Of a stretch of DNA of 64,000 nt, positions 14,640 through 42,195 are shown piece after piece. A program made the position numbers and the translations under genes. The DNA is from an uncultured Desulfobacter sp. (GTDB taxonomy: Bacteria; Desulfobacterota; Desulfobacteria; Desulfobacterales; Desulfobacteraceae). Location of the stretch: the NCBI GenBank assembly GCA_963665095.1, contig OY762069.1, positions 3,296,001 through 3,360,000 of the forward strand. Reading direction: 5' to 3'. Position 1 is the first letter of the stretch; each line of letters starts with the position of its first letter. The notes beneath the pieces are model-generated. The model was not told the DNA's origin, made no database searches, and worked only from the letters and a program-made list of their open reading frames with translations.

Positions 14640-16163
14640 TGAAGTGGACCCCATGTCAAGACCGATTTTAACGTTTTTTAAGCTACATTTTCTCTGTTTC
14701 TAATTTCGAATCAGCCTGTTAAAGACCCTCTTTTCCGGCATATTTTTCTTGATATTTAATACCGCTATGTTATCCTCCCGCCGCCAACCCGGAGGATAGG
14801 GCAATGCTGGGAAGCAACCTGAGCGCCGTGGCTGGCGACGAAGACATGGGGGCAGTATACGTTTAATGTATGCTGTCCTTCCCCCATGTTTTTGTCCTTA
14901 ATGCGTTAAATCCTCGCGCCTTAGCGCGAAATCAATACCCCGTAGGGCCGCCGGAGGCATCAGGCCTTTCCTTTAAGCCGCTCGATAGACCGAAAACGGC
15001 ACCTTATACCCCAGGGCTGAATGAAGTCTCTCCCGATTATAAAACCCGATAAACGCTTTTAACGATTGCTGAGCCTCTCTTACCGTTCTGTAGTCCTTCA
15101 AATAGACTTCTTCGTATTTAATCGTTCTCCACAGCCGTTCCACAAAAACGTTGTCCAAGGCTCTGCCCTTTGAATCCATGCTGATTTTGATGTTTTTAGC
15201 CTGGAGTATCTTCAAAAATTTTAATGAAGTGAACTGACTACCCTGGTCAGTGTTGAAAATCTCAGGTGTCGATACAATCAATGCCTCCTCAAGGGCCTCA
15301 ATACAAAATGTATTCTCAAGGGTGTTACTGAGGCGCCATGAAAGGACATATCTGCTAAACCAATCCATAACCGCCAATAAGTACATAAATCCGTTTCCAA
15401 TTCTAATGTATGTGATATCTGTACTCCATACCTGATCTGGCCTGTCAATTACGGCATTTTTCAGCAAATAGGGGTAAACTTTATGGCTTTCATCCCTCCT
15501 TGTTGTTTTAGGTCCTGGGTAAATCGCTTCTATTCTCATCAGCTTCATCAGGCGCTGTACTCGTTTCCTGCTTACCGGATACCCCATATTGTTCAGCCAG
15601 GCTGTAAGCCTACGGCTTCCATAAAAGGGGGTTTTGGTATGCTGCTCATCAAGCAGATCCATAAGGGTTAATGTATACGGGCTTATGGCTACCGGCCTGT
15701 AATACAACGCCCCTTTTGAAACCTGAAGCAGTTCACACTGCCGGTTAATGCTGATGGAAGGATGTTGTTTATCTATCAACCCCCTTCTGTCAGAGATTGA
15801 TTGTATTAACCTTTTTTTTTAACCAGTCATTCTCAACTTCGAGCTGACCGATTTTCTTATATAATTCGTCTATTAGATTCTGAGTATCATTTGGGCTTTT
15901 CTTTTTCGCTGATGAAAACAACGTCGGAAGACCCTCTATCGCTTCTTTCTTCCATCTGTTTAACATAGTTCGATGAACCTGGTATTTGGATGACAACTCC
16001 GCAAGAGTTTCATTTTCTCGAATCACATCAACTACAACTTTAGCTTTGAACTTTCCGGTATAATTTTTTCTCATGGACCTCCTTTTTCGGTACAAATTTG
16101 AACCGGGTTTTTATCACCTCATATGTACCTTAGCAACTGGTTCAAATTTCGGGGTCCATTATA
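14640..16163 (-). mobile_element. IS3-family element, copy 1
   Basis: Ends TGAAGTGGACCCC / GGGGTCCATTATA, 3-bp duplication CAC; second copy at 53266-58336. Confidence 0.92.
14973..16074 (-). CDS. IS3 transposase OrfA (15790-16074) / OrfB, likely programmed -1 frameshift
   Basis: A9G slippery run at ~15811-15820; WSTDITY, NTDQGSQF, DNVFVERLW motifs. Confidence 0.9.
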
Positions 16164-16761
16164 CACATCTCCAAAGAGGAGTTCCCGCGGTGTGCCGAAG
16201 TCATAGGCAGTTTTTCTCAGCTTTGCAGCTAAATTGAGGAGGTTGTCTTCACCTGATCCGTTTTCGAAAAACTGAAGGAGCCAATGAGAAATGCCATCGA
16301 TTGATTCTCCAAAGGGTCCATCAGAGCCTTCAAAATAGGTTTCAAGGTCGGCTTGCAACAACCAGAGCAACAGGTCTTCCAGACCAGAGCCATATAGATC
16401 CGGGCAGTCGCCATCAATGCGCTTTGCCAATACCGATGCACTTCCGGGAAGATCACACAGGTAATACGATGCAGAGCCGAGAAGTATAAGATACGGATCA
16501 AGAATCTCTTTCAGCCCTGACTGGAGAAAGGAGTCGAAAAAACGGGCAGAGAACAGCAAGTTGTTTCTCAGCTCCGAGACAGATTCAGGATATAACTCTC
16601 CCCGGTTAATAGCAGCGGCAAGATCCCCCAAAAGGGCTATTGAGACAGTGAAGAGCTTGGCCGGATCTTGTTTAATTTTTATGTGATGCTCTTCTGGTAC
16701 ACCATACTCAATCATTTTGGCCTTTGATCGAGTAACACCCAACAGCAAAAGGGATTTCTGT

Positions 16762-17328
16762 TCAGGCCTCATCCGCAGCCCTCCTATATAGTTCGTGGAC
16801 AAGCTCCATCATGCCGGGGCCCTTGATAACTAAGAGAACCAGATTGTCACCGTTTGGATGAGGAAAGAATGTCTTGGATTCAAAAACAAACAGAACATCC
16901 TTAGTGGAGGCTTTGCCATCTTTTTTATTAAATCGAAATCCGATTACATCGCTACCCTTTGGCGATTCATCTCGAACAACTTTCAATGACCATCGCACTC
17001 TGGGGACCCAATATCCGAGAAGCCATTGGAGATAATCGGAAACAAGAATCTCCCCAAAGTCTCCTGCCCGGATACCCGGACCGAGTTTTGTTGATTTGCT
17101 CGGAAACTTTATATCGATCAGGTAATCTGACCTTGTGCGTTTACCTCGGAGAAAATCAATGTCGGTATCCAGACAATAGTGATTTCGGAAATGTTTTGCC
17201 CAAGCTGAGAGCACGGCATCATTTTCCTCATGGCAGAAATCCCATACCTCGACATCTTTACCATCTGCGGTTTTCAACCGTTCGCCAGTATCAACAAACC
17301 ATTTAGTATGTTCCGAAGTCCAAGGCAT
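16762..17328 (-). CDS. hamA: Hachiman HamA-like (DUF1837) nuclease, probably internally deleted
   Basis: RAGDFGEIL, GSDVIG, FESK PD-(D/E)xK-type motifs; overlaps the helicase start; 188 aa appears short. Confidence 0.72.
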   Translation of the reverse strand: MPWTSEHTKWFVDTGERLKTADGKDVEVWDFCHEENDAVLSAWAKHFRNHYCLDTDIDFLRGKRTRSDYLIDIKFPSKSTKLGPGIRAGDFGEILVSDYLQWLLGYWVPRVRWSLKVVRDESPKGSDVIGFRFNKKDGKASTKDVLFVFESKTFFPHPNGDNLVLLVIKGPGMMELVHELYRRAADEA

Positions 17329-19384: not shown

Positions 19385-19919
19385 AATTTTTCTTATTTCA
19401 ATCATGACTTAATGCTGTCTTGAAAAGAGCTTCTTCTGGGTTCTTTATTGCTGAAATAATATTTTCGGCAATCTTATCTATTAGTTTTTGCCCCCAAAAT
19501 GGATCTTTCATATCATAGTAAATTACTCTTATATGGTTAAGATCAAAAGGAACATCTTCTTCATTGGAAGAAACTAAAACCACTGGCTTTTGAAGAGCAT
19601 GTGCTAAACCAAGTTCATAAAACACATTAGCATTTCTGGATGTTAGTTCAGCTACTAGCACTTTTGATGTTGTTATGCCTTTCCAGATTTGATCAATAAT
19701 TTTTCCTGTTGAAAAAATGTCATCATCTGCTCGTATTGGGGTAAGCCCTGCTTTTTCAATAGCAGGCTTATAAATAAGAGAGTAATAGCCACCCAATGGT
19801 TCTGCAAAGGGCATCATTACAAAGCATGTGTCATTTATATTTACCTTAACACCTTTTCCAATGGTCTTAAGTCGGCTATCCTTATCATCGTTAAATCCGT
19901 TTGAGGAAGCAGTTACATC

Positions 19920-19977
19920 TAATAACCAATAAGGATTGATGCGACCTGACAAGGTCGCTTTCAATCCATTGTTCAAG
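19920..19977 (-). other. attC-like hairpin of element 1
   Basis: CTTGAAC AAT GGATTGA AA GCGACCT TGTC AGGTCGC A TCAATCC TTATTG GTT. Confidence 0.8.
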
Positions 19978-20227
19978 AAGCCCGGGTTTCATATGGGTAA
20001 AGATTGATTGTGGTGCAGGCGGGGTAGGCAAGCACAGGGTGGAAATTGATAAAAAGTGCTTGCCGGTATGCTTTAACTTTTCAATTTTGAATAATTTTGA
20101 CGTCGTTCTTTGAAAAACAGGACAGGTTCAGGGTTCGTTTTTCGGCCGCAGGACGTACTCGTCCCTGACGGTTCAGAAAACCGTTAAAAAACATGTATCC
20201 TAAAACCCGTTCCCTTTACGTTGAAGC

Positions 20228-21328
20228 CTATCCGAACCCAAAATCAGGCAACGGTAAGGGGCGGATATAGTAGATGTGACATCTGAGCTTGAGGCCCGCC
20301 CCGCATTCCGGGCAAATTGGCTTTGGCGAAGATTTGGGTGTTTCTATAGGCCGCTGTTCTTTGAACCCCAGGGTTGACTGGATAAGTGAACGGATTCGTT
20401 CAAGCGGGATGGAAGATCCCGGTCCCATGAAGCCATAATATCGGATTTTCATAAATCCTGTGGGCAGGACATGCTGAAGGAACCTGCGCATAAATTCCAT
20501 TGTATCAAGGGTCATTTTCCGCAGGCGCCGGCTGCCGGGCTTTTTATAATGGAACATCACCTTCTGCTGATCGTAATGGATAATCCGGTAGTCGGAAATC
20601 GCCACTTTGAACACATAGGGGGCCAGGTATTTGATACTGTGGTGACTGGAAACGGCCTGGGAATTTACGTTGAACGGCTTTGACCAGACGTCCGGAGCAA
20701 TACTTTGAAGTATTCCGGCCGTATTCAGCTGGGTTTTAAGCTTTGCTCTGAACACCTTGGACATGGCTTTGACCGGAGCGAAGAAGGCCGGACGGCAGGG
20801 ATGCCATTTGCCGTCGGTCCGGGAATATGCTCCGCCGGGAACAACATAATGGATGTGCGGATGATACTGCATGGTCCGTCCCCAGGTGTGAAGGACTCCA
20901 AAAAAGCCGGGCAGATCACCGCCGATGAATTTGCTGTCCCTGGCAAAGGCTTTAAGTGTCTGTGAGGATGCCGCAAACAGTGCCGCATAGGCCTCCTTCT
21001 GGTTGCTTCGAAACAGAGCGCGCAATTGTTCCGGGATGGTAAATGTTATCAGAAAATGAGGGCCCGGCAGTTGTCGTTCCAGCTGCCGGTCACGCCACTG
21101 GCGGGTTTTATGGTACTGGCATATGGGGCAGTGACGGTTTCCACAGGAACGAAAACCGAAATGTATCCGGCCGCAGCCGGTACAATCATAGACCACCAGG
21201 CCGCAGGCAGACGTCCGGCAGGAAATGATTGCCTTCAAGGCTTTTATGTGATTTTTTGGAATGCGGGTTTTATACCGATGGAGGTATTCCCGGGCTGACC
21301 GGGCAAAAATGTTTTGAATGGCTCCCAT
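20228..21328 (-). CDS. IS91-family HUH (Y2) transposase with N-terminal Zn-binding domain
   Basis: SCGNRHCPIC, LHTWG...[23 protein letters not shown] motifs. Confidence 0.92.
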   Translation of the reverse strand: MGAIQNIFARSAREYLHRYKTRIPKNHIKALKAIISCRTSACGLVVYDCTGCGRIHFGFRSCGNRHCPICQYHKTRQWRDRQLERQLPGPHFLITFTIPEQLRALFRSNQKEAYAALFAASSQTLKAFARDSKFIGGDLPGFFGVLHTWGRTMQYHPHIHYVVPGGAYSRTDGKWHPCRPAFFAPVKAMSKVFRAKLKTQLNTAGILQSIAPDVWSKPFNVNSQAVSSHHSIKYLAPYVFKVAISDYRIIHYDQQKVMFHYKKPGSRRLRKMTLDTMEFMRRFLQHVLPTGFMKIRYYGFMGPGSSIPLERIRSLIQSTLGFKEQRPIETPKSSPKPICPECGAGLKLRCHIYYIRPLPLPDFGFG

Positions 21329-21330
21329 GG

Positions 21331-22200
21331 CTACACCTCCTTCATCAGATCATTGATAAGTCCGCAGGCGTGTTCATGCCCCTGGGTGGTCAGATGCAGG
21401 TAAACCATGGTGGTGGTCAGACTGCTGTGGCCCAGATACTGCTGGATGCGCCGGATGTTGACACCTGCTTCGAGCAGATGGGTGGCGTAGCTGTGGCGAA
21501 GGGTGTGGATGGTGACCCGTTTTGTGATGGGCAAAGAGGTCAGTGTCTGTCTCAGGGCTCCCCTGACGGAATTGCTCCTCATGGGTTCTTCTGCTGTTGA
21601 GGCTTCTTTGCCGTTGCGTCCAAGTTTTGGAAAGATCAGTTTGGGGTTGCGATGGGTGGCCCAGTATTCACGCAGAATAAAAAGTGTCTTTTCAGGCAGC
21701 GGCACGTATCGGTCCTTTGCGCCTTTGCCCCGATGGACATGGATGAACATGCGCTGGCTGTCAATGTCCCTGACCTGGAGGCTCAATCCCTCATTGAGCC
21801 TGAGACCGCAGGAGTAGACAGTGGTCAGGTAGGCTTTGTTCCAGGGTGTCCGGACAGCAGTAAGAATGGACTTAACCTCGTTAATACTGAGTACGGATGG
21901 TAACCGCTGTTCCCGTTTGGCATTAATCAGGGCAAGCGTATGCCAGTCCCGCTGCAGCACATTGATGAAGAAGAACTTTATGCCGCTGTAGCAGATACGC
22001 ATGGTGGCGGCAGACCATTGATCAACGTTTTTGCGATGGAGAAAATAATCCTGCAGTTCCCGCTCGGTGATTTCATCAGGGGTTTTGCCGAAGAAATCGA
22101 CCAGCATACGGATAGCGCGGGTGTAGTTCTTTTGAGTGGAAGTGCTCATCCCGGCAAGTTGCAGGGCCCTCATTGATTGTTGATAATAATCGCTCATCAT
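21331..22200 (-). CDS. Tyrosine recombinase, IntI-related but lacking the IntI-specific insertion
   Basis: [44 protein letters not shown] 22200 after AAGGAG. Confidence 0.92.
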
Positions 22201-23054
22201 ACCGTCTCCTTTCATGTGAAGGGTTAATTGGATTGGCGTCCAGATACGATACGATGAAAATGACGGGCAATGCAACTTGCCGATTTTATTAATTAGAGTA
22301 GTTGTTTGGCTGCCGCGTAGCGGCTTACTTGAACCTTATCTTACCTCCCTTTTCTTCTATAAGTTTTGCATAATTTAAGGTGTCAGTGAAAATACTTATA
22401 AAATCAGACAATGATGCCTCTGGTATATTAAATTTGTCTATCAGGGCATTTTTGAAAAATTCTTCGTCGGGCAAATTTTCCCCACGATAGTGTTCGTAAA
22501 CATCTGAGATATCGGGGGCATTCTTAACAGCTTTTCTTAGGCCATTTAAAACATCTTCAGGATTTTGGGGGCGAAGTATCTGCCTTGAAATGTCTGTTAG
22601 TTCCAAATGGCCTGTTTTAGGCCGTGTAAGAAGGCCATATTTAATACAAGAACTTAATTCAGACGTATATGGTCCTTTATTATATTTTACACCTACGAAG
22701 GTTGCAGATTCTTGTTCCGTACAACCTCGCCCTGCATTTTGATCGAAAATGGCTTTCGGAATGCGCAATGCTTTTTCTAAATTATGTCGAGGGTATTTAG
22801 GAGAATGTGAAGAGCTCTTCTTAGGTTTAGATTTTTTAGGGGATATGGGTGCATTGCTTTTTGAAGAAATGCCAGACCTTGATTTTATGTTTCGGACATA
22901 GGAAGATTTAATATCTCTTCCCAACTCTTTAAAATGGTCAACAATTTCTTGATTTGTCTTTTTAGGATTATCTTTCAAAAAATTTCGTACCATTTCAGCA
23001 GTACTAATAGAAGAGTTGTCTGTATCAACCATTAAATCCTCCTTATGTTGTAAA

Positions 23055-23112
23055 CCCGAACGTAAAGTTGAGTGGCGAGCTTCAGCGAGCCCACTCGAAC
23101 GCCTTGTTGGGC
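23055..23112 (-). other. attC site
   Basis: GCCCAAC...GTTCGGG, 58 bp; centre nearly identical to attC 51529-51586; R'' complements cassette start GTTGGGC at 28339. Confidence 0.88.
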
Positions 23113-23915
23113 ATATTTTCCATTCTTATCAAATCTTCCAACGTCCATAGCATTATTGTTGGTTCAATTTCTTCGACAAAGAATTTTGCTGATTTTGTAA
23201 ATGGAGCACTGGATATAACAATACCTGTAGGTATTTGTTCTAATGCCATTGATCCAACAAGTTGTCGAATAACGGAAATGGGTACTTGTGATGTGGTTTT
23301 ATATTTTTTCACCTCAACAATGGCTCTGCTATTTTGAAAAGGATGAACAATAAAATCGTATCCATAATCTTTTAGATGCGACTGATGTTCAACGTTGTAG
23401 CCTTTTTTTATAAACCACTGACCAACTAGTTCCTCAAATTCTTGAGCATCAATATTGTCTATGATTTCAGGTCGTTCAAGTAATGTTACTATGCTGTTAC
23501 GAGGATTTTCAGGGTCTAACCCCGAGTAGGGTTCTCGTTCTACATGAGAAGATAATATGTTTTCAACATGAGCCAACAAGTCGTAATGACTAGAATCCCT
23601 AGAAAAGTAACGCATACTTCTTAAATCAAAAGGAATATCATGTATATCAGCAACAACGATAATTTTCTTGTTTTGCCCAAGTGCATAACCTAATTCGAAC
23701 ATAACGTTGGCGTTATTGGGCTGTAAAAAGCAAATAAACAATGAACATTTATTGATCTTTTCAGTGATTGCATGATTAAGCTCACTACCAATACATGTTT
23801 CATCACATAATTCAAATGATTCAGCCCCAATTGATGGAAGATGATCATTAAGAAAACACGCAAACCTCTGTGCTTCGTAATCGTTGTAGGAATATGAAAA
23901 GAAAACTCGTTTCAT
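23082..23915 (-). CDS. TIR/deoxyribosyltransferase-like domain fused to an Mrr-like restriction endonuclease
   Basis: VFFSYS, NANVMFELGYA; QEFEELV, DYGYD, VEVKKY Mrr-type motifs. Confidence 0.8.
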   Translation of the reverse strand: MKRVFFSYSYNDYEAQRFACFLNDHLPSIGAESFELCDETCIGSELNHAITEKINKCSLFICFLQPNNANVMFELGYALGQNKKIIVVADIHDIPFDLRSMRYFSRDSSHYDLLAHVENILSSHVEREPYSGLDPENPRNSIVTLLERPEIIDNIDAQEFEELVGQWFIKKGYNVEHQSHLKDYGYDFIVHPFQNSRAIVEVKKYKTTSQVPISVIRQLVGSMALEQIPTGIVISSAPFTKSAKFFVEEIEPTIMLWTLEDLIRMENMPNKAFEWAR

Positions 23916-24263
23916 GACCTGACCTCCTTAGCCCGATACAAAGCCCAAAATTCATAAAGGGCTGATTGCTTGGCATTTACATCATCTGCTGTTTCAGTTC
24001 CAAACCTACAAAAAGACTCAAGCATTCGGTTACATTCTTGAAAACGTGTATCCAGAATTTCGTTGATCTCCTTATCCAATCTATCTGTAATTTTGGGGCG
24101 TAACTCATTTATTTCTTGATCTGATTGAGAATGATCACAAAAAATCATGGAAAAATTAAAGATAATTTGCAAGATATGCCAGGGATGAGGCAGAAGCTCC
24201 CCCGTTTATCTCGCAAATAATCAATGGAACTTCTGCCCCTATTACCCTAACAGGGCAGGAGAT

Positions 24264-24839
24264 ATGCTATCAGAACTTATTAAAAACAAAAATCTTTTTT
24301 TCCATCTTTACGAAATCGATAAAAATACAGCAAAACAGTACAGACAGTTGCCTTGTCCGCATTGTGGAGGCCCCTTATATTTCAGCAATTACATGCGCAA
24401 GCCCCGGGGAGAGCCTGAGGGCGTGCCGGAGGAATTCTTTATTCAGTTCAGCCTATGTTGTGGAACCGAAGGGTGTCGCAAAAGATTGATGCCGCCGTCC
24501 TGCCGTTTTCTGGGGAGAAAAGTCTACTGGTTTGCAGTTATTCTGTGTGTTTTAACAGACTGGCAAAATACCAATGAAAAAATCACCGTTTATGATTTGT
24601 CCATACGAACTGGCATTAGCCGGAACACAATAAACCGCTGGCTTGCCTTTTTTCAGGATACATTTCCAGTGAGCCGAACCTGGCGAAGGCTTCGGGGGCA
24701 GATATCCGCTGGTGTCAGTAACAGCCGTCTGCCGTCAAGTTTCATCAATTATTGCCGGGCGGTGAAATCCAACGCCGAAAACGCACTTGTATCAAGCCTG
24801 ATAATCTTATCAGGCGGGTCCAAAATCAGGGCCGGATAA
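24264..24839 (+). CDS. Zn-finger/HTH accessory protein of transposon B
   Basis: CPHC, CC...C, ISRNTINRW; GGAG RBS. Confidence 0.72.
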   Translation: MLSELIKNKNLFFHLYEIDKNTAKQYRQLPCPHCGGPLYFSNYMRKPRGEPEGVPEEFFIQFSLCCGTEGCRKRLMPPSCRFLGRKVYWFAVILCVLTDWQNTNEKITVYDLSIRTGISRNTINRWLAFFQDTFPVSRTWRRLRGQISAGVSNSRLPSSFINYCRAVKSNAENALVSSLIILSGGSKIRAG

Positions 24840-24945
24840 TCTCGCGCAGAGGATGAACATAGACAAATATATGCAGGCTGTTTTACCACCTGATTTCAGA
24901 CGTTGATCCGAAATTTTAACCTGAAATTAAAAAGGAGCCTGATTT

Positions 24946-26391
24946 ATGAGTGGTAAAACACAGCACCCGGCAGACCTGTGGGCATTATTTCGCTTTTCGG
25001 TTATCGGCGGTTTACTGGCACGCCCTCCGGCAAAGGGAGAGTTGCAAAATGAACTGACCCGGCTCGCAGGTCAAATCTATTCTCATCCTGTGACGAACAA
25101 ACCGACCTGTTTTCATTTTTCCACAATTGAGGCCTGGTATTACAGGGCAAAAAATTGCCAGGACCCAATTCTGGCTCTGGGCCGTAAAGTTCGTTCAGAT
25201 ATGGGCAAATCCACAGCATTGAATGCTGAATTGATCCGCCTTCTTGGTGTCCAGTACAACACTTATCCGCAATGGAGCTATCAGCTTCATTGCGACAACC
25301 TGGCAGCTGAAATCGCTGAACAGGGCCTGTGTGAGAATCCGCCGTCCTATGCAAGTGTGAGAAGGCGTATGGTTGAACGGGGTTGGAGAAAAAAGGCTTC
25401 CAAGAACAAAAATCAAACATCCGGACAGAAATCAGCTTTTAAGCGATTAGAAACGTATGAAGTCCGTAGTTATGAAACCGAAAACATCCATGAATTATGG
25501 CATCTGGACTTTCACGAATGCAGCAGGCGCGTGGTGGACGAAAAAGGTCAGTGGCATACGCCCAAGGCATTGTGCATTCTTGATGATCGCTCCCGTCTGT
25601 GTTGTCATATTCAATGGTATTTGAATGAAACGGCAGAGGTTTTGATCCACGGCTTGTCCCAGGCGTTTTACAAAAGAGGGCTTCCCAGAGCCTTGATGAC
25701 AGATAATGGTTCTGCCATGATTGCTCATGAAACCGGCAACGGACTTAAACGATTGGGCGTCAGTCATGAGACCACGTTGCCATACTCGCCCTATCAAAAT
25801 GGGAAGCAGGAAGCCTTTTGGGGTACACTTGAAGGCCGTTTGATCGCCATGCTGAGCCGGATGGATTCTTTGACCCTGGTATATTTAAATCAGGTCTCCC
25901 AGGCCTGGATCGAGATGGAATACAACAAGTCAACCCATGATGAAATTCATATGTCGCCATTGCAATGCGCCCTTGACGGCAAGGATGTGTCACGTCCTGC
26001 ACCGGAACCTGAACAGCTTCAATTTTCGTTTACAGCCTGTGAATCCAGAAAACAGCGTCTGTCCGATGGTACCATCTCTTTGATGGGCATCCGGTTTGAA
26101 ATCCCTTCACGGTTTAATCATATCCAGCGTCTTCATGTCTGTTTTTGCTCCTGGGATAAATCGGTTGCCTGGCTGATAGATAAACGAACCGGAAATAAGC
26201 TTGCCGCAATTTATCCCCAGGACAAGACAAAGAATGCTTCAGCAATCCGTCGTATCAAATCCACTCCGGATGAAATTAACCCTGGCCATGAAACCCTGTC
26301 CGGATCAGAACCGGCCCTGCTTAAAAAGCTCTTGTCCGATTATGCAGCAACCGGAATGCCTTGTGCCTACTTGCCAATGGAGGAAAAGTGA
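24946..26391 (+). CDS. DDE (rve/Mu-like) transposase
   Basis: WHLD, DDRSR, TDNG, NGKQE motifs. Confidence 0.9.
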   Translation: MSGKTQHPADLWALFRFSVIGGLLARPPAKGELQNELTRLAGQIYSHPVTNKPTCFHFSTIEAWYYRAKNCQDPILALGRKVRSDMGKSTALNAELIRLLGVQYNTYPQWSYQLHCDNLAAEIAEQGLCENPPSYASVRRRMVERGWRKKASKNKNQTSGQKSAFKRLETYEVRSYETENIHELWHLDFHECSRRVVDEKGQWHTPKALCILDDRSRLCCHIQWYLNETAEVLIHGLSQAFYKRGLPRALMTDNGSAMIAHETGNGLKRLGVSHETTLPYSPYQNGKQEAFWGTLEGRLIAMLSRMDSLTLVYLNQVSQAWIEMEYNKSTHDEIHMSPLQCALDGKDVSRPAPEPEQLQFSFTACESRKQRLSDGTISLMGIRFEIPSRFNHIQRLHVCFCSWDKSVAWLIDKRTGNKLAAIYPQDKTKNASAIRRIKSTPDEINPGHETLSGSEPALLKKLLSDYAATGMPCAYLPMEEK

Positions 26392-27215
26392 TGAACAGCA
26401 AACGATTATTGGCTTATTATGGATTGAAGTACAATCCTTTTTTACCAAATATTCCTGTGGACTCATTATGGCATCCACCCCGGATGGAGGCATTTATTAC
26501 ACGCCTTGAAAATATGACCATGAACGGTGGATTTGCATTAATCGCCGGTGAACCCGGTCTTGGCAAATCCAAGACACTACAGGCGATTGCCCATCAGCTT
26601 GGCAAGCTTGATGAAGTCGTTGTCGGCGTTATGGAGCGCCCCCAAAGCAGCGTGGCCGATTTCTATCGGGAAATGGGGACACTGTTTGGTGTCAATTTGA
26701 GTCCGGCCAACCGTTACGGAGGGTTCAAAGATCTGCGGCAACGATGGAAAAATCATATTAAAACAACCCTGTTCAGACCCGTCCTGCTCATTGATGAGGC
26801 TCAGGAAATGCTTACCGGATGCCTGAATGAGCTTCGGTTGCTCAACAGTATGGATTTTGACTCCCAGAATTTATTGACCACCATTATCTGTGGTGATACC
26901 CGGCTGCCGGAACGGTTCAGAACCAGTGCATTGGTAGCCCTGGGGAGTCGACTCCGGTTCCGGTTAAAATTGGATCCTTATACCCGGGAAGAATTGTTGG
27001 ATTATATAGCGCATTGCCTAAATCAGGCCGGAGCTCCTCAACTCATGACAAAACCTTTAATCACCGCTTTGGTAGAGCACTGTACAGGAAACTTACGGGT
27101 CCTCAATAATATGTCGGCAGAACTGCTTGAAGTGGGCGTTCAAAGAGAGCTGCCGCAACTGGATGAGAAACTTTTCATAGAGCTTTTTTCACTGAAACCG
27201 TCGCCAACCAGATAA
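26388..27215 (+). CDS. ExeA-like AAA ATPase
   Basis: GEPGLGKS, LIDEAQ; start overlaps the transposase stop. Confidence 0.88.
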   Translation: MMNSKRLLAYYGLKYNPFLPNIPVDSLWHPPRMEAFITRLENMTMNGGFALIAGEPGLGKSKTLQAIAHQLGKLDEVVVGVMERPQSSVADFYREMGTLFGVNLSPANRYGGFKDLRQRWKNHIKTTLFRPVLLIDEAQEMLTGCLNELRLLNSMDFDSQNLLTTIICGDTRLPERFRTSALVALGSRLRFRLKLDPYTREELLDYIAHCLNQAGAPQLMTKPLITALVEHCTGNLRVLNNMSAELLEVGVQRELPQLDEKLFIELFSLKPSPTR

Positions 27216-27226
27216 GAGGTATAAAA

Positions 27227-27469
27227 ATGACAATCAATGAAACACAACTTGAAAAAACAATGGCTGAAATTGTCGACGAGCTGGGCAATCTGGTCATGGA
27301 GTTGATCCTTGTCAGTTTAAAAAAAATAAACTCGGAAAATCATCTTTTGACAGAATTGCTGGAGATCAAACAAGAGGAACAAAGAGAAAATGAATTTTAT
27401 GGTTTTGGTGAAACGGAGCCGGGACATCCTGGGGAGGAAACCCGGCAAGGGATAGCCAAAAGCAGGTAG
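27227..27469 (+). CDS. Small hypothetical protein of transposon B
   Basis: GAGG RBS; 3' part overlaps the conserved RNA motif. Confidence 0.45.
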   Translation: MTINETQLEKTMAEIVDELGNLVMELILVSLKKINSENHLLTELLEIKQEEQRENEFYGFGETEPGHPGEETRQGIAKSR

Positions 27470-27583
27470 CATTGAATAATGCGCCGGGGGAAGCGGGGTT
27501 GACCTGCTTCCCCTTTCTGTATTATTCAAGCTTTCCTGCTCATGCCTTAAAAAACCCAATAAAATCAGTCGGAGCGCAGCGAC
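27403..27583 (+). ncRNA. Candidate structured RNA at the 3' end of transposon B (also 56586-56766)
   Basis: Homologous to 7641-7814 with compensatory base changes. Confidence 0.5.
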
Positions 27584-28332
27584 ATCTGCTAATCATTGAA
27601 AATACAGTTATGCCTTTCCCTGATTTATCCTGATTGTCGCTCCATTGATTATCGTGCTTCCTCTCAGATTTACCGACATACTGCTTTTGAATTGTGACTG
27701 TCCAGCCTTTACATGATGAATGAGACCAAGTGGAAGGATGAGCTCTAAACTCAGTTCCGAGGGTTTCGAATGATGAATTCAATAATTTGCCAATTTCAGC
27801 CCCGCGCCACGGTAATGCCCCCAATTCTGGAGTTTTAAGGGATTCCATATCATAAATGAACAATTCTCCGGAATCTGTTAACCTTAGAATTGAATCAATG
27901 AATATATTAGCGAAAGCTCCTGGCTGTAATTCATGAGCTGTATTGGTGCAGGTTATGAAATCGAATCGGTGGTCATTGTTGATGATTTTGTTAAAATCGG
28001 ACAAATCTCCATGTAAAAAGGCGTATTCCTTAAACTTTAATCCGTCTGCCATCCTTTCCGCTGTTCGAGTATGATCTACATTTATATCGTATCCAAAATA
28101 TGAAAGCTTTGCTCTGTGTGTCAAAGATAAGTTTTCATTAAGTTGAGAGATGATTTGTCCTTTACCACATGCCAAATCAAGCCAGCATAATTTGCCAACA
28201 GCAGGATTTTGAAGACGACTATTCAACAAAGTTAATGCTGATTGATGTTGAGGTAAAATTCGCCTTATATCATGTGTAGCATCCGAATCAGCAATCGATG
28301 ACATAAGATTTCCTTGTGTTTATTTGTTTTGA

Positions 28333-28404
28333 GCCCAACGTGGCCATCACCGGTTGCTATGGAGCGCTAGCGGATTAGCAATCCGGTGCATGGCATGGTT
28401 AGAT
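28333..28404 (-). other. attC site
   Basis: ATCTAAC...GCCATGCACCGGATTGCTA...TAGCAACCGGTGATGGC...GTTGGGC, 72 bp. Confidence 0.9.
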
Positions 28405-28416
28405 GGAAAATCTCTT

Positions 28417-29307
28417 TTAAAAGACAGTATTTCGAACTAAAAATTTTCCATTAAATGTCATGGGTATACCTTGAGATTCGTTTTCCACATGCATATGAAG
28501 ATGTGGTTCACTGGTGTTGCCAGAGTTACCTACCTTCCCAATTGGTTGCCCCACTTTAACGAGGTCACCTTTCTTTACCAAAAGACTACCTTTCATCATA
28601 TGAGCAAGGTAAACAATTGTACCTTTATGGCTAATGGCCACATAGTTACCCAATGGTCTTTTTTTATCCATCGTAAGAGGAATCATATCAGGTCGATCAC
28701 CAGCAAGTTTGATTACTTTTCCGTCACAAGGGGAATAAATAATGTCTTCGAATATTTCATATTTTGAAAGCTGTTTTGGAATAATACCTATCGCTCTAAT
28801 TCCAAACTTATTAAGTTTATTAATATCCAGTGCATATTTTTGTGGAGGGTATGAATAATGATGGTTAGTGATGATGCTATTGCCACCATGTGAAATATAA
28901 TAAGTCCCATTTTTTAATGGAAACTCTAATTCTAAAGGCTTTGTATTAATAAAAAACCCTTTAATAGTCGAAAAATTATTTTTACTGTATACGATAGTTA
29001 AAACTATAATGATCGATAATGAAATATATCTCTTGTAATCTAATTTTTTAAAGAAGGGGCTTGTCTTTGCTTTTTTATATGAGAAAAATGCTGATATTAA
29101 AAATACAGCAATCAAGATATATCTCAGATAATAACTGACCCAATCCCATCTGCCAATGTTGAAAATTAACAACATATAGGTCGCTGTAAATAGAAACTGG
29201 AAAACCCAATCTATCTTGCTTTTGTAGTTTCTTTTCATTAACCAAATTATAATAATTGCAGGAAGTATCAATTGGTCGATAAATATAAGTGATATTAATA
29301 AAACCAT
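28417..29307 (-). CDS. Membrane-anchored M23-family metallopeptidase
   Basis: N-terminal TM helices; YALD, LAH, GNSGNTSEPHLH. Confidence 0.88.
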   Translation of the reverse strand: MVLLISLIFIDQLILPAIIIIWLMKRNYKSKIDWVFQFLFTATYMLLIFNIGRWDWVSYYLRYILIAVFLISAFFSYKKAKTSPFFKKLDYKRYISLSIIIVLTIVYSKNNFSTIKGFFINTKPLELEFPLKNGTYYISHGGNSIITNHHYSYPPQKYALDINKLNKFGIRAIGIIPKQLSKYEIFEDIIYSPCDGKVIKLAGDRPDMIPLTMDKKRPLGNYVAISHKGTIVYLAHMMKGSLLVKKGDLVKVGQPIGKVGNSGNTSEPHLHMHVENESQGIPMTFNGKFLVRNTVF

Positions 29308-29336
29308 AATCTATTTATTGTTACACATTATGCTAT

Positions 29337-29510
29337 TTATGTTGCTGTTCCGGTTTTACCAAAAATAAATACAAATGGAATAGCTAAAGGTCCAAACACT
29401 GCTCCCATAATTGCCCAGAACATAACTTTTCCCCCTCTTTTTTCTGCAATAGTACCCAAGAGAAAAGCAAAAGCAAAACTGATTAGACTTCCAATTATTA
29501 TACCCACCAT
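29337..29510 (-). CDS. 57-aa membrane protein (below the ORF-track cutoff)
   Basis: GGAGG RBS; MVGIIIGSLISFAFAFLLGTIAEKRGGKVMFWAIMGAVFGPLAIPFVFIFGKTGTAT. Confidence 0.7.
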   Translation of the reverse strand: MVGIIIGSLISFAFAFLLGTIAEKRGGKVMFWAIMGAVFGPLAIPFVFIFGKTGTAT

Positions 29511-29541
29511 TTCAAAATATCCTCCATAATTATGTCTGTAA

Positions 29542-29663
29542 ATCTAACGTGAAGTTCAGCCGCCCGGGGCTTGTGCCGAGCAGATTGTAAAAGCCAAATT
29601 TTTTCGAAAACCGAGCACTTTCAAAAGGCCGCTAGCACACCGGGTCGGCTGCAACGGCTTGTT
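29542..29663 (-). other. attC site whose R'' box is interrupted by element 2 (remainder ATGC at 32059-32062)
   Basis: Plus strand ATCTAAC-GTGAAGTTCAGCCGCCCGG...CCGGGTCGGCTGCAACGGCTTGTT; restored GCATAAC complements cassette start GTTATGC at 33058. Confidence 0.88.
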
Positions 29664-29792
29664 CAAGTAAGCGCTACGCGCAGGCTCCGCCTCGCAGCAT
29701 TGTTCAATTACATTGCTCATGGTATCTTCTAATTACCGGTTTGCAGGTCGGTATCTTCCGCCCGACAAGGTTAAAGAAGAAAGGAAGATACC

Positions 29793-30667
29793 ACGAGCAA
29801 ATTAATCAAACGTTTTAAAGAAGACCTCCAGTTAGCAGGATATGCTGACCGCAGCATTCAATCCTATACCGGCGCAGTTTTAAAGCTGCAGCGGTTTTAC
29901 AATCAACCCTTAGAAGATATCAGCGAAGAACAGCTGCGTCAATATTGGCTTAGCTGTCAAAACGAACTTGGCTGGAGTGCAGCCACACTGCGTATCAGTT
30001 ATTCCGGCATCCAACATTTTTTCAGCAGAACCCTGGTCAGATCCTGGAACCTTTTCAACGAAATCCAATGGAAGCGCGAGGAGACCTTACCAACTATTCT
30101 GAGCCTGGAGGAAGTCAGGAAAATTATATATGCCCTTCCCACCGTACAAAGTTATACATTTTATTTGACCTTATATTCCATGGGCCTGCGTTTGAGGGAA
30201 GCAACAACGCTTCAGGTCAAGGATATCCTTTCTGACAGGGGACTTGTGCATATTCACGGAGGAAAGGGTTACCGGGACAGGACCGTCCCCTTACCCCCAA
30301 TAACCCTGTCGGCTTTGCGAGACTACTATAAAACCCATCGCAATTCTAAATGGATTTTCCCTGCCCTGGGCCGCAATGGCGGTAAAGATGCCCAATATGC
30401 CGAAAATCATGTGAGCCAAAGTGGTGTTCAAGGCGTTTTACGATCCACTTTAAAACGCATGAAGTTTAAAAAACATGTCCACCTCATGTATTCCGCCATG
30501 CCTATGCAACTCATCTGCTCGAAGCCAATATCCCCATACGGCATGTTCAAAAAATATTGGGTCATAAAACCCTTAAAAGTACCATGATTTATCTGCATGT
30601 GACCACACAGGCCCGGGTTGATTCCAATGACAGGGTTTCCAAAGTCATGCAGGGGGTGTTGTCATGA
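29793..30667 (+). pseudogene. Tyrosine recombinase of element 2 (ACG at expected start, frameshift at ~30482)
   Basis: (M)SKLIKRFKEDLQLAG..., YSMGLR, GKGYRDR; shifted frame continues [13 protein letters not shown]...[12 protein letters not shown]. Confidence 0.85.
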
Positions 30668-31749
30668 GCGCCATTCAAAAAATCTTTCAGATGTATGGCG
30701 CCCAATATATGGCACTTTATGGGGATCGAATGCCCAAGGCCCATAAAAAAACCATCCGGGATATCATTCAGTGCCGAAGCGGCTCCTTTGGTACAATGGT
30801 GTATGAATGCAGCGACTGCAAAAATCTGCATCTGATCCACTGCTGCTGCGGCAACCGCCATTGCCCCAACTGTCAACAGAGTAAAGCAGATCAATGGCTT
30901 GTTCAGCAAATGAAAAAATTGCTGCCGACTCACTATTTTTTGTTAACGATCACACTGCCGCAAGGTCTTCGGGACGTTGTAAGATCACATCAAAGACAAA
31001 CCTACAGCGCCCTGTTTTCATGCACCAATAAAGCATTGAAAAAATTAGCACAAGACAAGCGGTTTGTCGGATCGGACCAAATTGGATACCTGGCCGGTCT
31101 CCACACATGGGGCGGCATGCTCCAGTATCACCCCCATTTACATCTGATCATCCCCGGTGGTGCTTTATCCGGTAAAAACCTATGGCTTGCTTCCAGGCAG
31201 GATTTATTTGTTCACACAAAACCCTTGGAGATTATTTTCAAAGCCAAATTCAAGAATGCGATGAAAAAAGCCGGACTGCTCAACAAAATTGATCCGGCCG
31301 TCTGGAAACAGCAGTGGGTGATTGACAGCCAATCCGTGGGGCAGGGACAAAATTGCCTGCGATATCTTTCAAGATATGTTTTCCGGGTGGCCATCTCCAA
31401 TAACCGCATCAAAAGCATTGAAAATGGTGTCATTAAATTTTCGTACAAGGATCGTGAAAAGAAAAAATGGAAAACCATGGCTCTGGATGCCATGGAATTT
31501 ATCAGAAGGTTCTTGCAACATGTTCTTCCCAAGGGATTTATGAAAATCCGGCATTATGGATTTCTTAATCCCAACAGTGCATTACCCATTGAAAAAATCC
31601 GTGAACTGATCTCATTCATCCATGACATTATTGCGCTTTTTACTGAAATCCGGGAGCCTGCAATCCCCGGCATTAAATGCAGCCATTGCGGACATGATTT
31701 GAAATTCATTTTCTTTGTAAAACCTGAATCCCGGGGCAAACCCCGGTAA
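30664..31749 (+). CDS. IS91-family HUH (Y2) transposase
   Basis: [14 protein letters not shown]...[18 protein letters not shown]. Confidence 0.92.
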
Positions 31750-31995
31750 CTGCACATTTTTTTGACCCGGTTTGGGCCTTTTTTACAAACAGCCTGATCT
31801 ATCACCAGGCATGTTGCGCTATTCGTGCGCAATATTGCAGCTACCTAAGGTTTTGAACCGGGTTTTAACAACTGAAAATCGGCTGGGCTTCTGGTTTTCA
31901 CATCAAAAGAAAGGCCGTTTTTTAAGTTTTCATCAGACCTGATCATTAACCCATCCAGAAAACCGGTAACCTTTCCCCCTATACACCCGCGGCTT

Positions 31996-32062
31996 CTTGA
32001 ACCAAAGGATTAGTACCGAGCTTCGTGCCTCAGCACGGTTACTAATCCTTTATTTGTTATGC
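31996..32062 (+). other. attC-like hairpin of element 2
   Basis: CTTGAAC C AAAGGATTAGT ACCG...CGGT T ACTAATCCTTT ATTT GTT. Confidence 0.8.
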
Positions 32063-32068
32063 ATATTG

Positions 32069-33031
32069 TCAATCTTTTTCAGATAGGCCTATCATAATGC
32101 CATTCGGGGCAAATCTGTCGCAATATGTCTCAATCCCTAATTTAATGATTAACGCTGTTGTCGATACCGCAAGTGCTTTGATCCCAATATTCATACTTGT
32201 CATTGCCGCAATAATCGCACCGCCTAAATATTTTTTATCTAAAACTACAGAAAGCCCATTATTAAACCAAGCCTGATAGATTTCACTTTTAGGGTCGCAT
32301 AATGATCTATAAAGAACTCTTTTAAAGGATGAAAAAACAGTTCGTCCTAATTCCTTTTCTTTGACAATTTCTTCCGGTGCAGGCAATATTTTTTTTTCGT
32401 CATAAGGGAGTTGATCTCCAGAAAAATTATGAATTCTCAATAAATCATTGATGACCTTTCGTGGAAGATGTCTTCCGAAATCCGATAAAATTTCATCTTC
32501 ATTCTTTGTTTGGATCAAAATTCCCGCTTCATTTTCAATTTGTTCAACCCTTAAAACATCGTCGCCTGAATTTTTGAGGGCGGCTAAAGCGGCTTCTTCT
32601 TTGAATCGTTGAATAATTCTTCGTTTGAATTGCCTTCGTCTTTTATCGGATCTGATATATTTGCTTTTTTCCAAAACTGTTTCAATTAAGGGTTCTGCTA
32701 AATCAATATTTTCATTCCTAAGATGACAGATCGCCAACAAAGAAGTTGCTTCCAAATACACTCTCGTTTGAGGATTACTTTTCTTTTGGACTCCGATTAA
32801 GCCGGGAATCGCGATGTGTAGGTTGCCTGATTCCATTGCTGCTTCAAAAAGCCAATTCTTTGCCTGCATTAATCTTGTTTCGTGCCCTGACTGTCTCAGC
32901 AGGTTTTGGATATCATATACTATCTGCTTTGCGAGTTCATAGTTCCCATTTTTAACAGCATTCCTGAGGTTCGGCTCCAAAATTTTCAGCCTTCTTTTCT
33001 GCTGCTTAGTTAATTTAGGCGGTCTTGCCAT
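32069..33031 (-). CDS. Hypothetical helical-repeat (TPR-like) cassette protein
   Basis: 320-aa ORF with AAGGA RBS between complementary core sites. Confidence 0.75.
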   Translation of the reverse strand: MARPPKLTKQQKRRLKILEPNLRNAVKNGNYELAKQIVYDIQNLLRQSGHETRLMQAKNWLFEAAMESGNLHIAIPGLIGVQKKSNPQTRVYLEATSLLAICHLRNENIDLAEPLIETVLEKSKYIRSDKRRRQFKRRIIQRFKEEAALAALKNSGDDVLRVEQIENEAGILIQTKNEDEILSDFGRHLPRKVINDLLRIHNFSGDQLPYDEKKILPAPEEIVKEKELGRTVFSSFKRVLYRSLCDPKSEIYQAWFNNGLSVVLDKKYLGGAIIAAMTSMNIGIKALAVSTTALIIKLGIETYCDRFAPNGIMIGLSEKD

Positions 33032-33128: not shown

Positions 33129-34295
33129 TTAATGGGGTAACTCGGTTCCTTCGCTCATGATCCGGATATATTCTGAATACGAATAAAGGCGATTACGCTT
33201 CTGGCCGCTTATTTCTTTCACTATACCAAGCTGTTCAAGTTCACGCAGACAGGCATTAACTGTAGCCGGTGCAAGTCGCGTTTTCTTTTGGACCCAATTG
33301 GGTGAAGCCATTGGACGCTCGAGCATTGCCTTATGAACGAGATGGGCCGAACCGGATATACGTTTCAGTCCGTTAATACGCACTCCATCTTCAGCAGACA
33401 GTTTCATAAGTTGCTGAACGGTTTCAACGGCTTTGGTTGCTGTATAAATAACGGCATCGACAAAGAAATTGAGCCAAGCCTCCCAGTCACCGGTCAGCCG
33501 TACTTCGTTCAAAAGCTCATAATAACGTTGTCGGTATGTTTTGAAATAGAGGCTAAGATACAGCATCGGTTCCTTGAGTACTTTTTCAGAACACAACAAC
33601 AGGGTTATTATCAAGCGGCCGAGACGACCATTACCATCAAGGAATGGATGGATGGTTTCAAACTGGACATGTGCCATTGCCGCCTTGATCAACACAGGCG
33701 TTTTTTCCGGAAGATCATGTAGAAACAGTTCCAGTTTCCCCATACATTCTTGAAGATATTCAGGTGGTGGGGGTACAAAAGCGGCATTACCAGGGCGACT
33801 TCCACCAATCCAGTTTTGACTCCTTCGAAATTCACCAGGATCACATTCTTTGCCACGACCTTTCGATAGCAATACACTATGGATCTCTTTGAGCAACCTG
33901 AGCGAAAGAGGGAAATCCTCTTTAAGTCGTCTGAGACCATGATTGAGAGCTGCTACATAGTTGCTTACCTCCTGCACATCATCTAAGGGAACTCCGGGTT
34001 GATGTTCGAATTCAAACATCAAAAGGTCCGAGAGTGAGGATTGAGTGCCCTCGATCATAGAAGAAAGTACCGCTTCCTTGCGCACATACATATAAAGGAA
34101 AAGCGATGTGTCCGGAAGCAGTACTGAGACACTGTCCAGGCGGCCAAGGGCCAGCAGAGCCTGGTCAAATTTTTCCCTGAGTTTGGATGACCATTCAATG
34201 GGAGGTGCCGGCGGCAAAGGGGCTGGAATGAATGCTTGAGTCTTTTCTCCAACTGTCGATATATTTATATATTGGCCTTGCAGATCTCTTTTCAT
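33129..34295 (-). CDS. Fic-family protein (DUF4172-like N-terminus, C-terminal HTH)
   Basis: EAVLSSMIEG inhibitory motif, HPFLDGNGRLGR catalytic motif. Confidence 0.93.
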   Translation of the reverse strand: MKRDLQGQYINISTVGEKTQAFIPAPLPPAPPIEWSSKLREKFDQALLALGRLDSVSVLLPDTSLFLYMYVRKEAVLSSMIEGTQSSLSDLLMFEFEHQPGVPLDDVQEVSNYVAALNHGLRRLKEDFPLSLRLLKEIHSVLLSKGRGKECDPGEFRRSQNWIGGSRPGNAAFVPPPPEYLQECMGKLELFLHDLPEKTPVLIKAAMAHVQFETIHPFLDGNGRLGRLIITLLLCSEKVLKEPMLYLSLYFKTYRQRYYELLNEVRLTGDWEAWLNFFVDAVIYTATKAVETVQQLMKLSAEDGVRINGLKRISGSAHLVHKAMLERPMASPNWVQKKTRLAPATVNACLRELEQLGIVKEISGQKRNRLYSYSEYIRIMSEGTELPH

Positions 34296-34449: not shown

Positions 34450-34538
34450 GTAAAACGTTGAGTTAAGCGGAAAAATTATAACCCAAAAACAACGTAAAAC
34501 CCGGCGGGTATTTTTCCGTCTTCAACTCTTTGTTACAT
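34450..34538 (-). other. attC site closing the IS91-like transposase cassette
   Basis: ATGTAAC AAAGA GTTGAAG ACGGAAAAAT...ATTTTTCCG CTTAAC TCAAC GTTTTAC; extrahelical G in L''. Confidence 0.85.
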
Positions 34539-34794
34539 TAACCGGGTCGAAGCCTCGCAGTTGATTTCTTGGGTAAAAGCAGGGGAATCCTTTTTTTCAA
34601 ACTTAGATTTAACAGCACAGATTTTAAAATTTGCCTGGTAAAATTGAGTGAGCATTAAGATTCTTCCTTCTATTTTATCCGGTCAGGCTTGAAAAAGAGC
34701 CGAAAAACCTGGTACCGGAGCGGATTGCCGATACGAGTCCCTGACAGGGAACTGCCTATTTTGATATCGGTAATTGTTTCCAAAGTAAAGCTTT

Positions 34795-36027
34795 TTATGG
34801 TTCCCCTGATTTAGCCGGAATTTGCTTGGCCTTGGTTTTTGGTAAGTCGTCTTTCACCACGTTGCCATGACCGTCCAGCACCAGGATCGTTATCATGTTC
34901 CCTTTGCCGCAGGCCGGGCATTGAGGCGTCTGTTCTTTCAGGGGTTCAGGATCAGGGGTATCCCGGTCATTCAATGCCTGGCGTATTTCCGATATATTTC
35001 GCCCTGCCTGCCCGTTGGCCAGAAACCCATAATATCTGATCCGGTGAAAGTGTTTTGGAAGAACATGCAAAAGGAAACGATCAATGAAGCTCATTACCGG
35101 TAAAGAAGTTGTTTCCCACTTGGATTTATTCCGGGTGTTTTTAAACCAGAACTCCACAGTCTCGTTGTTAACGGATATAATCCTGTTGTTGCTGATGGCT
35201 GTTGAATGGGTGTATCTACCGATATATTTAACGACTTCGGCTGGACCTGAGAATGGTGGTTTGGAATATACCACCCAGTCTTTTGGAGCGGTATGGTACA
35301 GCCATTGCCTGAATGCGCAGGGTTTTGAAAAATGAGCCAGTTCATCCGGGATGTTTAATCGTCCTCGACCGTGGGCTGCAATAAGGCCGTTAAGGAACTT
35401 TGCCCTGAATACATTTGAAAGCGCTTTGACCGGAAACAGGAATGTTGAGCTGTACTTGGGCTCCACCCATTCCCCATAAGTGTTTATTCCGCCTGCAGTG
35501 ACAATGAAATGGATGTGGGGATGCAGCCAGAGTTTGCCGCCCCAGGTGTGGAGGATACCGTAGAACCCGATCTTGGCTCCAAGACGCTTTGGATTCTCCC
35601 CGAATTCCAGCAGGGTCTGGGAGGCGCTTTCAAACAACAGGTCATACATTACCCGCCGGTTGAACCGGCACAAAGGGTTGAAGATATCCGGCAATGTGAA
35701 AACGCAGTGGTGATAGGACACCGGAAGCAGATCGTTGATCCTGGCCGTCACCCATCTGTGACGGGCGATATTGTTTCAACCCGGACAATGGCGGTTCCGG
35801 CAGGAGTTGTATCCTTTTTCAAGGTGGCCGCATGTGTCGCATAGCTCCCAGTGGGTGCCAAATTCTCCGCGTCGGCAGTGCTCGATATCGTACATAACCT
35901 TGTGTTGTCTGGGGTGCAGGCGGTGTGCTGATCTGAAGGGAGGACCGTATTTTCTAAATATATCTCCGACGCTTGGACCGGTTTCGGGTTTTTCAGGGAG
36001 CTTGGTATGGCTGCAAAGTGTTTTCAT
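34795..36027 (-). CDS. IS91-family HUH transposase with in-frame TGA at 35776-35778 (pseudogene or selenoprotein)
   Basis: Both ORFs are in one frame: SCRNRHCPG*NNIARHRWVTAR; LHTWG...HPHIH, YIGRY, RFLLHVLP. Confidence 0.85.
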
Positions 36028-36145
36028 CGGTTATGGAAGCCCGTTCTCCGGAAAAGTTTGCACCATAGATTATGAAGTCCTTATTTTATAGGCGTTTCGA
36101 GCTCTGCAGTTGGCTTCAAGATGTTGCATTCACCGTCCAGGTTTA

Positions 36146-36195
36146 ATGTAACGGCCAAAATCTGCGGCTTGTCCGCAGCATTTTGATTGTTGGAT
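36146..36195 (-). other. Short attC site (50 bp)
   Basis: ATCCAAC AATCA AAATGCTG CGG ACAAG CCG CAGATTT TGGCC GTTACAT. Confidence 0.85.
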
Positions 36196-42000: not shown

Positions 42001-42195
42001 ATTGAATAATGCGCCAGGGGAAGTGGGGATTACCTGCTTCCCCTTTCTGCTTTATTCAAGCTGTTCTGCCTATGCCTTAAAAACCTACTGAGAAGGAGCG
42101 CAGCGACTTCTGTAGCTGTCTTAAATAATATGGAAAAGATTTAATCTGTTCAAAATAATTAGAAAATTTAAGTCAGGATAAAATGCGACTCAACA
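39098..42195 (+). mobile_element. Transposon type A, copy 2 (ORFs 39290-39736, 39840-41096, 41093-41902)
   Basis: Near-identical to 4805-7902; 5-bp duplication ATGGG. Confidence 0.92.

Follow-up and report, generated by a model that had tools for sequence, protein, structure and literature searches.

The 64,000-nt window analysed here belongs to contig OY762069.1 of an uncultured Desulfobacter sp. (GCA_963665095.1, positions 3,296,001-3,360,000, forward strand). It carries two elements, A (19926-22333, - strand) and B (29662-32056, + strand), each of which was found by sequence inspection and profile scans to encode a tyrosine recombinase (YR) and an IS91-type HUH enzyme. Both start at G|TT, the bar marking the junction, and finish with an inverted repeat, then a hairpin and then G|TT. 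An earlier note on this DNA had described two divergent elements with the same ends, and the coordinates, ends and hairpins that it gave were confirmed. The YRs share 46% and the HUH proteins 42% identity, while the DNAs can be aligned over 86 nt only; a chance repeat was rejected as the origin of the shared ends.

Element A (2408 bp) is intact and present in three identical genome copies. Its left end (22312-22333, - strand) opens with TT; next come a terIS-like tetranucleotide (22328-22331, CTTG when read on the + strand) and, adjoining it, a short palindrome (22312-22324), a layout described in PMC13181058. On a circle this end forms an R'-like box. The palindrome by itself has no significance relative to shuffled sequences (z -1.6). 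The YR gene (21331-22200, - strand; 289 aa) codes all catalytic residues (R134-K159-H232-R235-H258-Y267), in agreement with the earlier description of this recombinase as intact, and lacks the insertion found in the integron integrase IntI. It is followed by the gene of the IS91-family Y2 HUH enzyme (20228-21328, - strand; 366 aa; H156/H158, Y234/Y238 and zinc cysteines) and by an internal oriIS-like motif (19990-20002, - strand; pattern picked by eye), the putative HUH binding site. The left end finds its complement in the subterminal inverted repeat (19971-19982, - strand) with the R''-like box CTTGAAC, and the terminal hairpin with its spacer (19926-19970, - strand) reaches the G of G|TT.

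Element B (2395 bp) has a second genome copy that is 99.6% identical. On the + strand it features a left end with a terIS-like tetranucleotide and a palindrome (29662-29681), the YR gene (29793-30667), the gene of an IS91-family Y2 HUH enzyme (30664-31749; 361 aa), an internal oriIS-like motif (31970-31984), a subterminal inverted repeat with an R''-like box (31991-32002) and the terminal hairpin with its spacer (32003-32056). The YR gene of the window copy is frameshifted near 30481, and in both B copies ACG occupies the position (29793-29795) where relatives have a start codon. Read on the - strand, the B hairpin is now the attC-like site of the upstream cassette 32069-33031. The hairpins of A and B fold far better than shuffled sequences on both strands (z -5.5 to -7.2, 0/200 shuffles as good). 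In the computed circles the joined ends lengthen the stem with one base bulged, as had been predicted; the side and place of the bulge differ between A and B, and fixed extrahelical bases were not seen.

Both elements lie in an integron cassette array that reads on the - strand and contains a group II intron and many insertion sequences. The window copy of A is located inside a cassette gene, whose 5' part is found at 22334-23032 and whose 3' part, with a nucleoside deoxyribosyltransferase-like domain scoring below the Pfam cut-off, is found at 19398-19925 (both - strand). Removal of A at G|TT yields a stop-free open reading frame (ORF) of 408 codons that aligns with all 21 longer homologues found, the junction being gapless in the 8/8 inspected. 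Removal of B restores a folding attC, of which 29542-29661 (- strand) lies on one side of the element and the rest, at 32057-32062, on the other, the split being at the R'' box. Both targets are thus exactly restored, as the earlier note had stated, and there is no target duplication. The three A and two B copies occupy five different sites with the same hairpin at each, so the hairpin is part of the element; its assignment to the target was rejected.

Three of the five copies (B, the second B copy and one A copy) lie at the R'' box of a host attC and oppose the array direction, and another A copy has a group II intron within its left junction. After such an inverse R'' insertion the element hairpin trails, in array direction, the upstream cassette and the host attC trails the element, so that neither neighbour is left without a site. 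One A hairpin stands alone (G000:C1:2928254-2928301): it separates two cassette genes, with a small ORF on one side and on the other a pair of genes that look toxin-antitoxin-like in sequence, and was evidently recombined at its inner GTT. Its position is suggestive of IntI recombining these hairpins as a folded single strand. The solo hairpin is present in all 4 runs of close strains compared with 19700-22600.

Relatives, paired ends and targets

Searches retrieved 221 HUH loci of 121 types with a YR gene just upstream in 200, a count biased by the 80 loci that had been fetched with the YR. Flanks were sufficient in 64 types; for 56 of these a script identified the two ends together with a stem, nine calls proved wrong on inspection, and 47 types were retained. 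They span Desulfobacterota, Verrucomicrobiota, Cloacimonadota, Planctomycetota, Chloroflexota, Acidobacteriota, Bacillota and Pseudomonadota. Judged from these sequences, the element family is real, widespread and active. The hexamers of the left end and of R'' are fully complementary in 37/47 types, with at least two pair types at each of the 6 positions, a count favoured by the way in which R'' was located, namely through complementarity to the left end; multi-copy families define the element ends independently of complementarity. The commonest end pairs are TTGAAC/GTTCAA (17), TTCAAG/CTTGAA (11) and TTGGAC/GTCCAA (6). Rare AA, AT or AC cores replace TT in L120, L156-L158, L118, L133, L126 and L131, and the subterminal repeat changes to match. 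The excised circle could take those two bases from the target; in one AA-core family the right junctions are also G|AA or G|TA.

The targets of multi-copy elements were compiled from 59 left and 59 right flanks; two rhizobial families were set aside, as were 2 left flanks that are altered and 12 right flanks that bear stacked hairpins. G is found at position -1 in 57, T at +1 in 56 and T at +2 in 58, followed by A at +3 in only 40 and T at +4 in only 37. The AAC-hairpin-GTT right end and the GTT targets that the earlier note expected of homologues are thus both present, the hairpin being kept in the 47 types. When all types are considered, the base preceding TT is G in 106/130 left flanks. Only 29/130 left junctions are attC-like (by our own score threshold; controls 0.4% and 1.8%), and targeting of attC alone was therefore rejected. 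These 29 comprise 25 inverse insertions at R'', 2 forward insertions at R' and 2 unclear cases; the scorer is blind to orientation, which was called from the base after AAC and checked against neighbouring ORFs, a check that contradicted the call in a few rows (e.g., L207). The four G361 copies examined separately (4/4) have a forward, cassette-like placement, and two E. coli class 1 integrons provide one forward and one inverse case. Outside attC, the case for targets requiring AA at a distance of seven bases from TT is weak (A at -9 in 40% and at -8 in 42% of 82). Taken together, the targets appear to be G|TT sites in general, with attC as a favoured subset that is usually entered backwards at R''. 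In G360, a genome without an IntI match, several targets (L170, L175, L210, L212) directly precede a repeated small REP-like palindrome.

The position of the strand switch can be read from imperfect targets. In TT-core multi-copy families, 67/67 left junctions begin with TT (intron-hit junctions excluded). Departures of the G|AT type were found on the right only (L220, L203, L016, L019) and departures at -1 on the left only (L225, L016, L018). The switch is therefore at N|TT and not at the tetranucleotide 2 nt further in; this agrees with the crossover in GTT proposed earlier, and an element end at the GAAC/CAAG tetranucleotide was rejected. N|TT is also the crossover position given for integrons in PMC12901181. 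For the IS91 family, PMC13181058 describes the targets CTTG, GTTC and GTCC, a palindrome beside the terIS cut and a bottom-strand circle as substrate. The same three tetranucleotides (CTTG/GTTC/GTCC) are found at the left ends of the relatives, and a cut after them would fall 2 nt inside the mapped crossover.

Enzymes and transposition route

Both YRs match the Pfam domains Phage_int_SAM_4 and Phage_integrase, and the catalytic R, K, H, R, H and Y are conserved in 86, 85, 82, 84, 84 and 81 of 88 full-length proteins. The HUH residues H156, H158, Y234 and Y238 are conserved in 77-79/81 proteins, and the HUH proteins score 353-360 bits against NF033538 (cut-off 125). The best PDB match in the YR alignment is VchIntIA (2A3V), with a gap at the place of the IntI insertion, the part of IntI that reads extrahelical bases; the YR score for TIGR02249 (integron integrase) is 171 bits, below the cut-off of 265. 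IS91-linked recombinases were placed in an integron-like subgroup, and the missing insertion noted, in a preprint (bioRxiv 10.1101/542381). A quick IQ-TREE analysis of 61 rows (6 rows dropped as frameshifted or unplaced) set YR, IntI and XerC/D each on one side (Shimodaira-Hasegawa-like approximate likelihood ratio test 91, 100 and 100), an unrooted three-way split that gives no sister relation or order. The evolutionary link to integrons suggested in the earlier note holds as kinship with IntI, already published; the YR is without the IntI insertion and the tree orders no events. An AlphaFold model of YR-A, left aside, reached a predicted local distance difference test score of 53.

The hairpin-G|TT-left end arrangement of a circle junction is present in three contigs, namely L143 and L073, with terminal overlaps of 134 and 141 nt, and L065. 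A cut before AAC on the right and one after the tetranucleotide on the left would give exactly their junction. Close-strain runs over 19700-22600 showed only flanks already known, the solo hairpin and a few loose ends of other kinds. In 8 element types, 33 short units are stacked at the right end, each terminating at GTT, and 26 of the 33 begin with element sequence. Of the 17 distinct starts, 13 follow a TT foreign to that position. Viewed on the bottom strand, a constant 5' AAC is attached to 3' ends that differ, a pattern consistent with HUH chemistry that terminates early and not with recombinase chemistry; these end fragments probably reflect a second cut, made by HUH. Stacks of up to nine short end-derived units occur at the right G|TT of L188-L237 (G359), L208, L189, L281, L002, L042, L076 and L177.

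The route that we consider probable is that HUH releases a bottom-strand single-stranded circle whose folded junction is integrated by the YR of the element at G|TT through one strand exchange. As IS91 biology and the stacked fragments suggest, HUH would nick at the right junction, on the bottom strand and immediately outside AAC, displace the strand by rolling-circle synthesis and stop at the left terIS-like tetranucleotide, freeing the circle. The ends, complementary in sequence, would then pair and lengthen the hairpin into a predicted folded site with AAC and GTT boxes. Finally, the YR would exchange one strand at AA|C, the position observed, with the G|TT target, and replication would resolve the exchange as it does for IntI on attC x attI. 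Inverse entry at the R'' box of an attC would leave a usable site on each side and the host array would keep working. Folding in vivo and the assignment of each cut to one of the enzymes are what we infer here.

The left end, with its terIS layout and canonical tetranucleotides, could also be taken to mean that HUH performs both steps, cutting at a shifted position, AA|C, while the subterminal repeat, by pairing with left end and target, plays the part that guide sequences have in IS200/IS605, and the YR acts as a resolvase or regulator. End pairing is silent on which enzyme reads it, and the lack of strand bias in folding and of the IntI insertion in the YR agree with such a role for HUH. However, the targets have only G|TT in common and not the left-end tetranucleotide, the crossover lies 2 nt from the canonical cut, and the stacked units indicate a separate cut after GTT. 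Elements without YR are also informative. The canonical L288 and L290 (canonical IS91, IS801-like) stop a few bases after the oriIS motif, then GAAC or CAAG, without a hairpin, and L215-L217 stop at a like motif, also without a hairpin. In the window, element C (34456-36151, - strand; 4 genome copies, one of them 5'-truncated) has an IS91-like HUH gene, interrupted by an in-frame stop, without recombinase, and is an ordinary cassette with an ordinary attC; L169 is built in the same way. C, L168, L206 and L291, the last in a class 1 resistance integron, have a canonical attC and are placed forward in arrays, and the ends of L291 are of the TTGAAC/GTTCAA type. Since elements without YR have either no hairpin or an attC, hairpin ends accompany a recombinase, be it that of the element or of the host, and not canonical IS91. 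Transposition by HUH without the YR is thus unlikely.

Integration by the YR and HUH release of a single strand, the route favoured above, must also be weighed against excision and Campbell-type integration of a double-stranded circle by the YR, with HUH only amplifying the circle from the internal oriIS-like motif. The motif was found inside 21/47 YR element types versus 3/94 control windows (pattern picked by eye), about 25-55 nt upstream of the R''-like AAC and followed by the hairpin; its internal position, the intact YR and the circle-junction contigs are compatible with such a scheme. It is nevertheless distinctly improbable. Homology between element and target is limited to one base, the stacked units agree with nicking at the element end, and the long stems, which vary in sequence and conserve structure (median folding z -6.9 for the computed circle junctions of the 31 cleanest types; 25/56 rows excluded), are unneeded by a double-stranded site.

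Integration of the circle by the host IntI (or Xer), the YR being a passenger, could account for the G|TT crossover, the enrichment in attC, the forward cassette-like placement of L239, L100 and the four G361 copies examined and the solo hairpin that serves as attC. No IntI match was found in G360 (one closed chromosome, 13 copies) or in G302 (1 contig, 99% complete, 2 copies), which implies that spread is independent of the host IntI. This observation, the existence of families with AA, AT or AC cores and the conserved catalytic set of the YR make a passenger role very unlikely, although IntI may act secondarily on the sites of the elements.

Several points weigh against the two-enzyme route that we favour. 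The YR, which would have to handle a folded site, is without the IntI insertion (I2 helix region; the segment is 70-86 aa in in-frame YRs versus 112 aa in 6/6 IntI). Folding of the junctions has no strand bias (bottom better in 18/31, top in 13/31, p 0.47), the 3' spacer is longer than in attC (usually 1-3 nt, read by eye; the 5' spacer is about as in attC, also read by eye) and bulge positions vary. The contigs with a circle junction could also stem from tandem dimers or from cycles in the assembly, no circle joint was seen in the four runs of close strains compared, out of 8 listed (contigs only, which drop rare forms), and a single genome supplies 26/33 stacked units. Right junctions of some rhizobial elements are without TT and may be overwritten by other insertions. 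The ends of 8/64 testable types were not called, in addition to the nine wrong calls, and the favoured count of end pairing has also to be kept in mind.

Gene-cassette geometry, as claimed in the earlier note, therefore stands for the boxes, the hairpin and the G|TT crossover; it does not extend to the spacer, to fixed extrahelical bases or to strand bias. Likewise, the proposed autonomous one-cassette integron-like element is self-mobile, cassette-like and spreads without host IntI, but it appears to be a transposon rather than an integron. No attI or cassette promoter was recognised beside the YR gene, a sigma-70 scan of 22150-22400 gave no match, and it is the right G|TT of the element that collects stacked units; together with the missing IntI insertion, this led to rejection of the element as an integron. 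A more far-reaching scenario is possible, if doubtful: the elements would be a distinct transposon class (HUH excises, YR integrates the folded single-stranded circle) preserving the stage that gave integron cassettes. The hairpin would then be a proto-attC and the YR an IntI from before the insertion was gained, HUH cassettes that have a canonical attC but no YR would be intermediates, and the small circles stacked at the element's own G|TT would be a primitive array.

What the recombinase does in the widespread elements annotated as IS91, and how single-strand recombination of the attC type arose, are questions that a 2.4-kb unit with defined ends brings within reach of the suicide-conjugation assays used for IS91 and integrons. 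The proposed route predicts that an enzyme lacking the IntI insertion recombines folded strands. If true, one enzyme peels off a single-stranded circle and the other pastes it in cassette-like, an undescribed transposition route. The annotated ends and targets of a large insertion-sequence group are corrected, and the relatives found in both orientations inside class 1 integrons give the family relevance for resistance surveillance.

Other features of the window

The intI gene of the array is split by several insertion sequences into the segments 52309-53031 and about 58340-58683; an intact intI is found elsewhere in the genome (910169-911113). An Rfam scan of 17000-54000 identified only a group II intron domain. 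Large identical repeats occur twice in the window (4805-12726 and 39098-45883; 24126-27553 and 53309-56736; 2613-3929 and 58828-60144) and are nested IS481/IS21-type, IS3 and IS4 elements. Defence-like cargo was found at 12900-17328, 23082-23915, 33129-34295 and 36367-38886. Its types are a HamA-like gene with an interrupted helicase, TIR-like and Mrr nuclease genes, a Fic protein and a DEAD helicase.

Comparison with known systems

The pairing of the two genes is known: catalogued IS91 members with an upstream tyrosine recombinase exist, among them ISShvi3 (PMC9229058), and both the gene pair and the kinship of the YR to IntI have already been published. No description of the end structure, targets or mechanism was found in the literature searched, with subscription journals, paper supplements, ISfinder and TnCentral lying outside it and the latter two possibly describing some ends. 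The transposition mechanism is probably new.

With the IS91 family (IS91, IS801, IS1294, IS1294b) the A/B-type elements share an NF033538 HUH protein with HUH and Y2 motifs, a terIS-like left end (CTTG/GTTC/GTCC beside a palindrome), an oriIS-like motif, the absence of target duplication and a proposed single-stranded circle. They differ by continuing past the oriIS-like motif into the inverted repeat and hairpin, whereas the right end of IS91 is oriIS abutting the target. Their ends are complementary while IS91 is without terminal inverted repeats. They extend 2 nt beyond the terIS tetranucleotide, carry an intact recombinase, target G|TT and not a tetranucleotide, and cross over 2 nt from the IS91 cut. 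As in integron cassettes, the ORFs are followed by an AAC box, a hairpin and G|TT, the boxes are fully complementary only on the circle, the crossover is between G and TT, and VchIntIA (2A3V) is the best PDB match of the YR. Unlike cassettes, these elements encode their own recombinase and HUH, the YR being without the IntI insertion, and their sites have a longer 3' spacer (attC has 5-nt and 6-nt spacers), variable bulges and no strand bias; they are mostly inverse at R'', and a platform with attI and cassette promoter was not recognised.

Group IIC-attC introns and IS1111-attC elements likewise insert into attC in the orientation opposite to the cassettes, at R'' or close to it, and in this genome an intron of the group IIC-attC kind strikes the same type of attC and an A left end. 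They use other enzymes, and the A/B-type family is not restricted to attC (29/130 junctions attC-like). In several phyla, group II introns were also found to interrupt the left ends of elements within their first bases, and one occupies the same box of a plain attC (G000:C1:923155 and 3902695; L010, L023, L031, L115).

CTX phage uses the host XerC at dif. CTX, other Xer-exploiting elements and SE elements resemble the A/B-type route in that a tyrosine recombinase exchanges single strands and replication resolves the product (PMC9345347); SEs encode no HUH (PMC9345347). In contrast, the A/B-type unit of 2.4 kb holds both enzymes and its target is loose. The A/B-type family departs in defining features from both the canonical IS91 family and the IntI/attC system.

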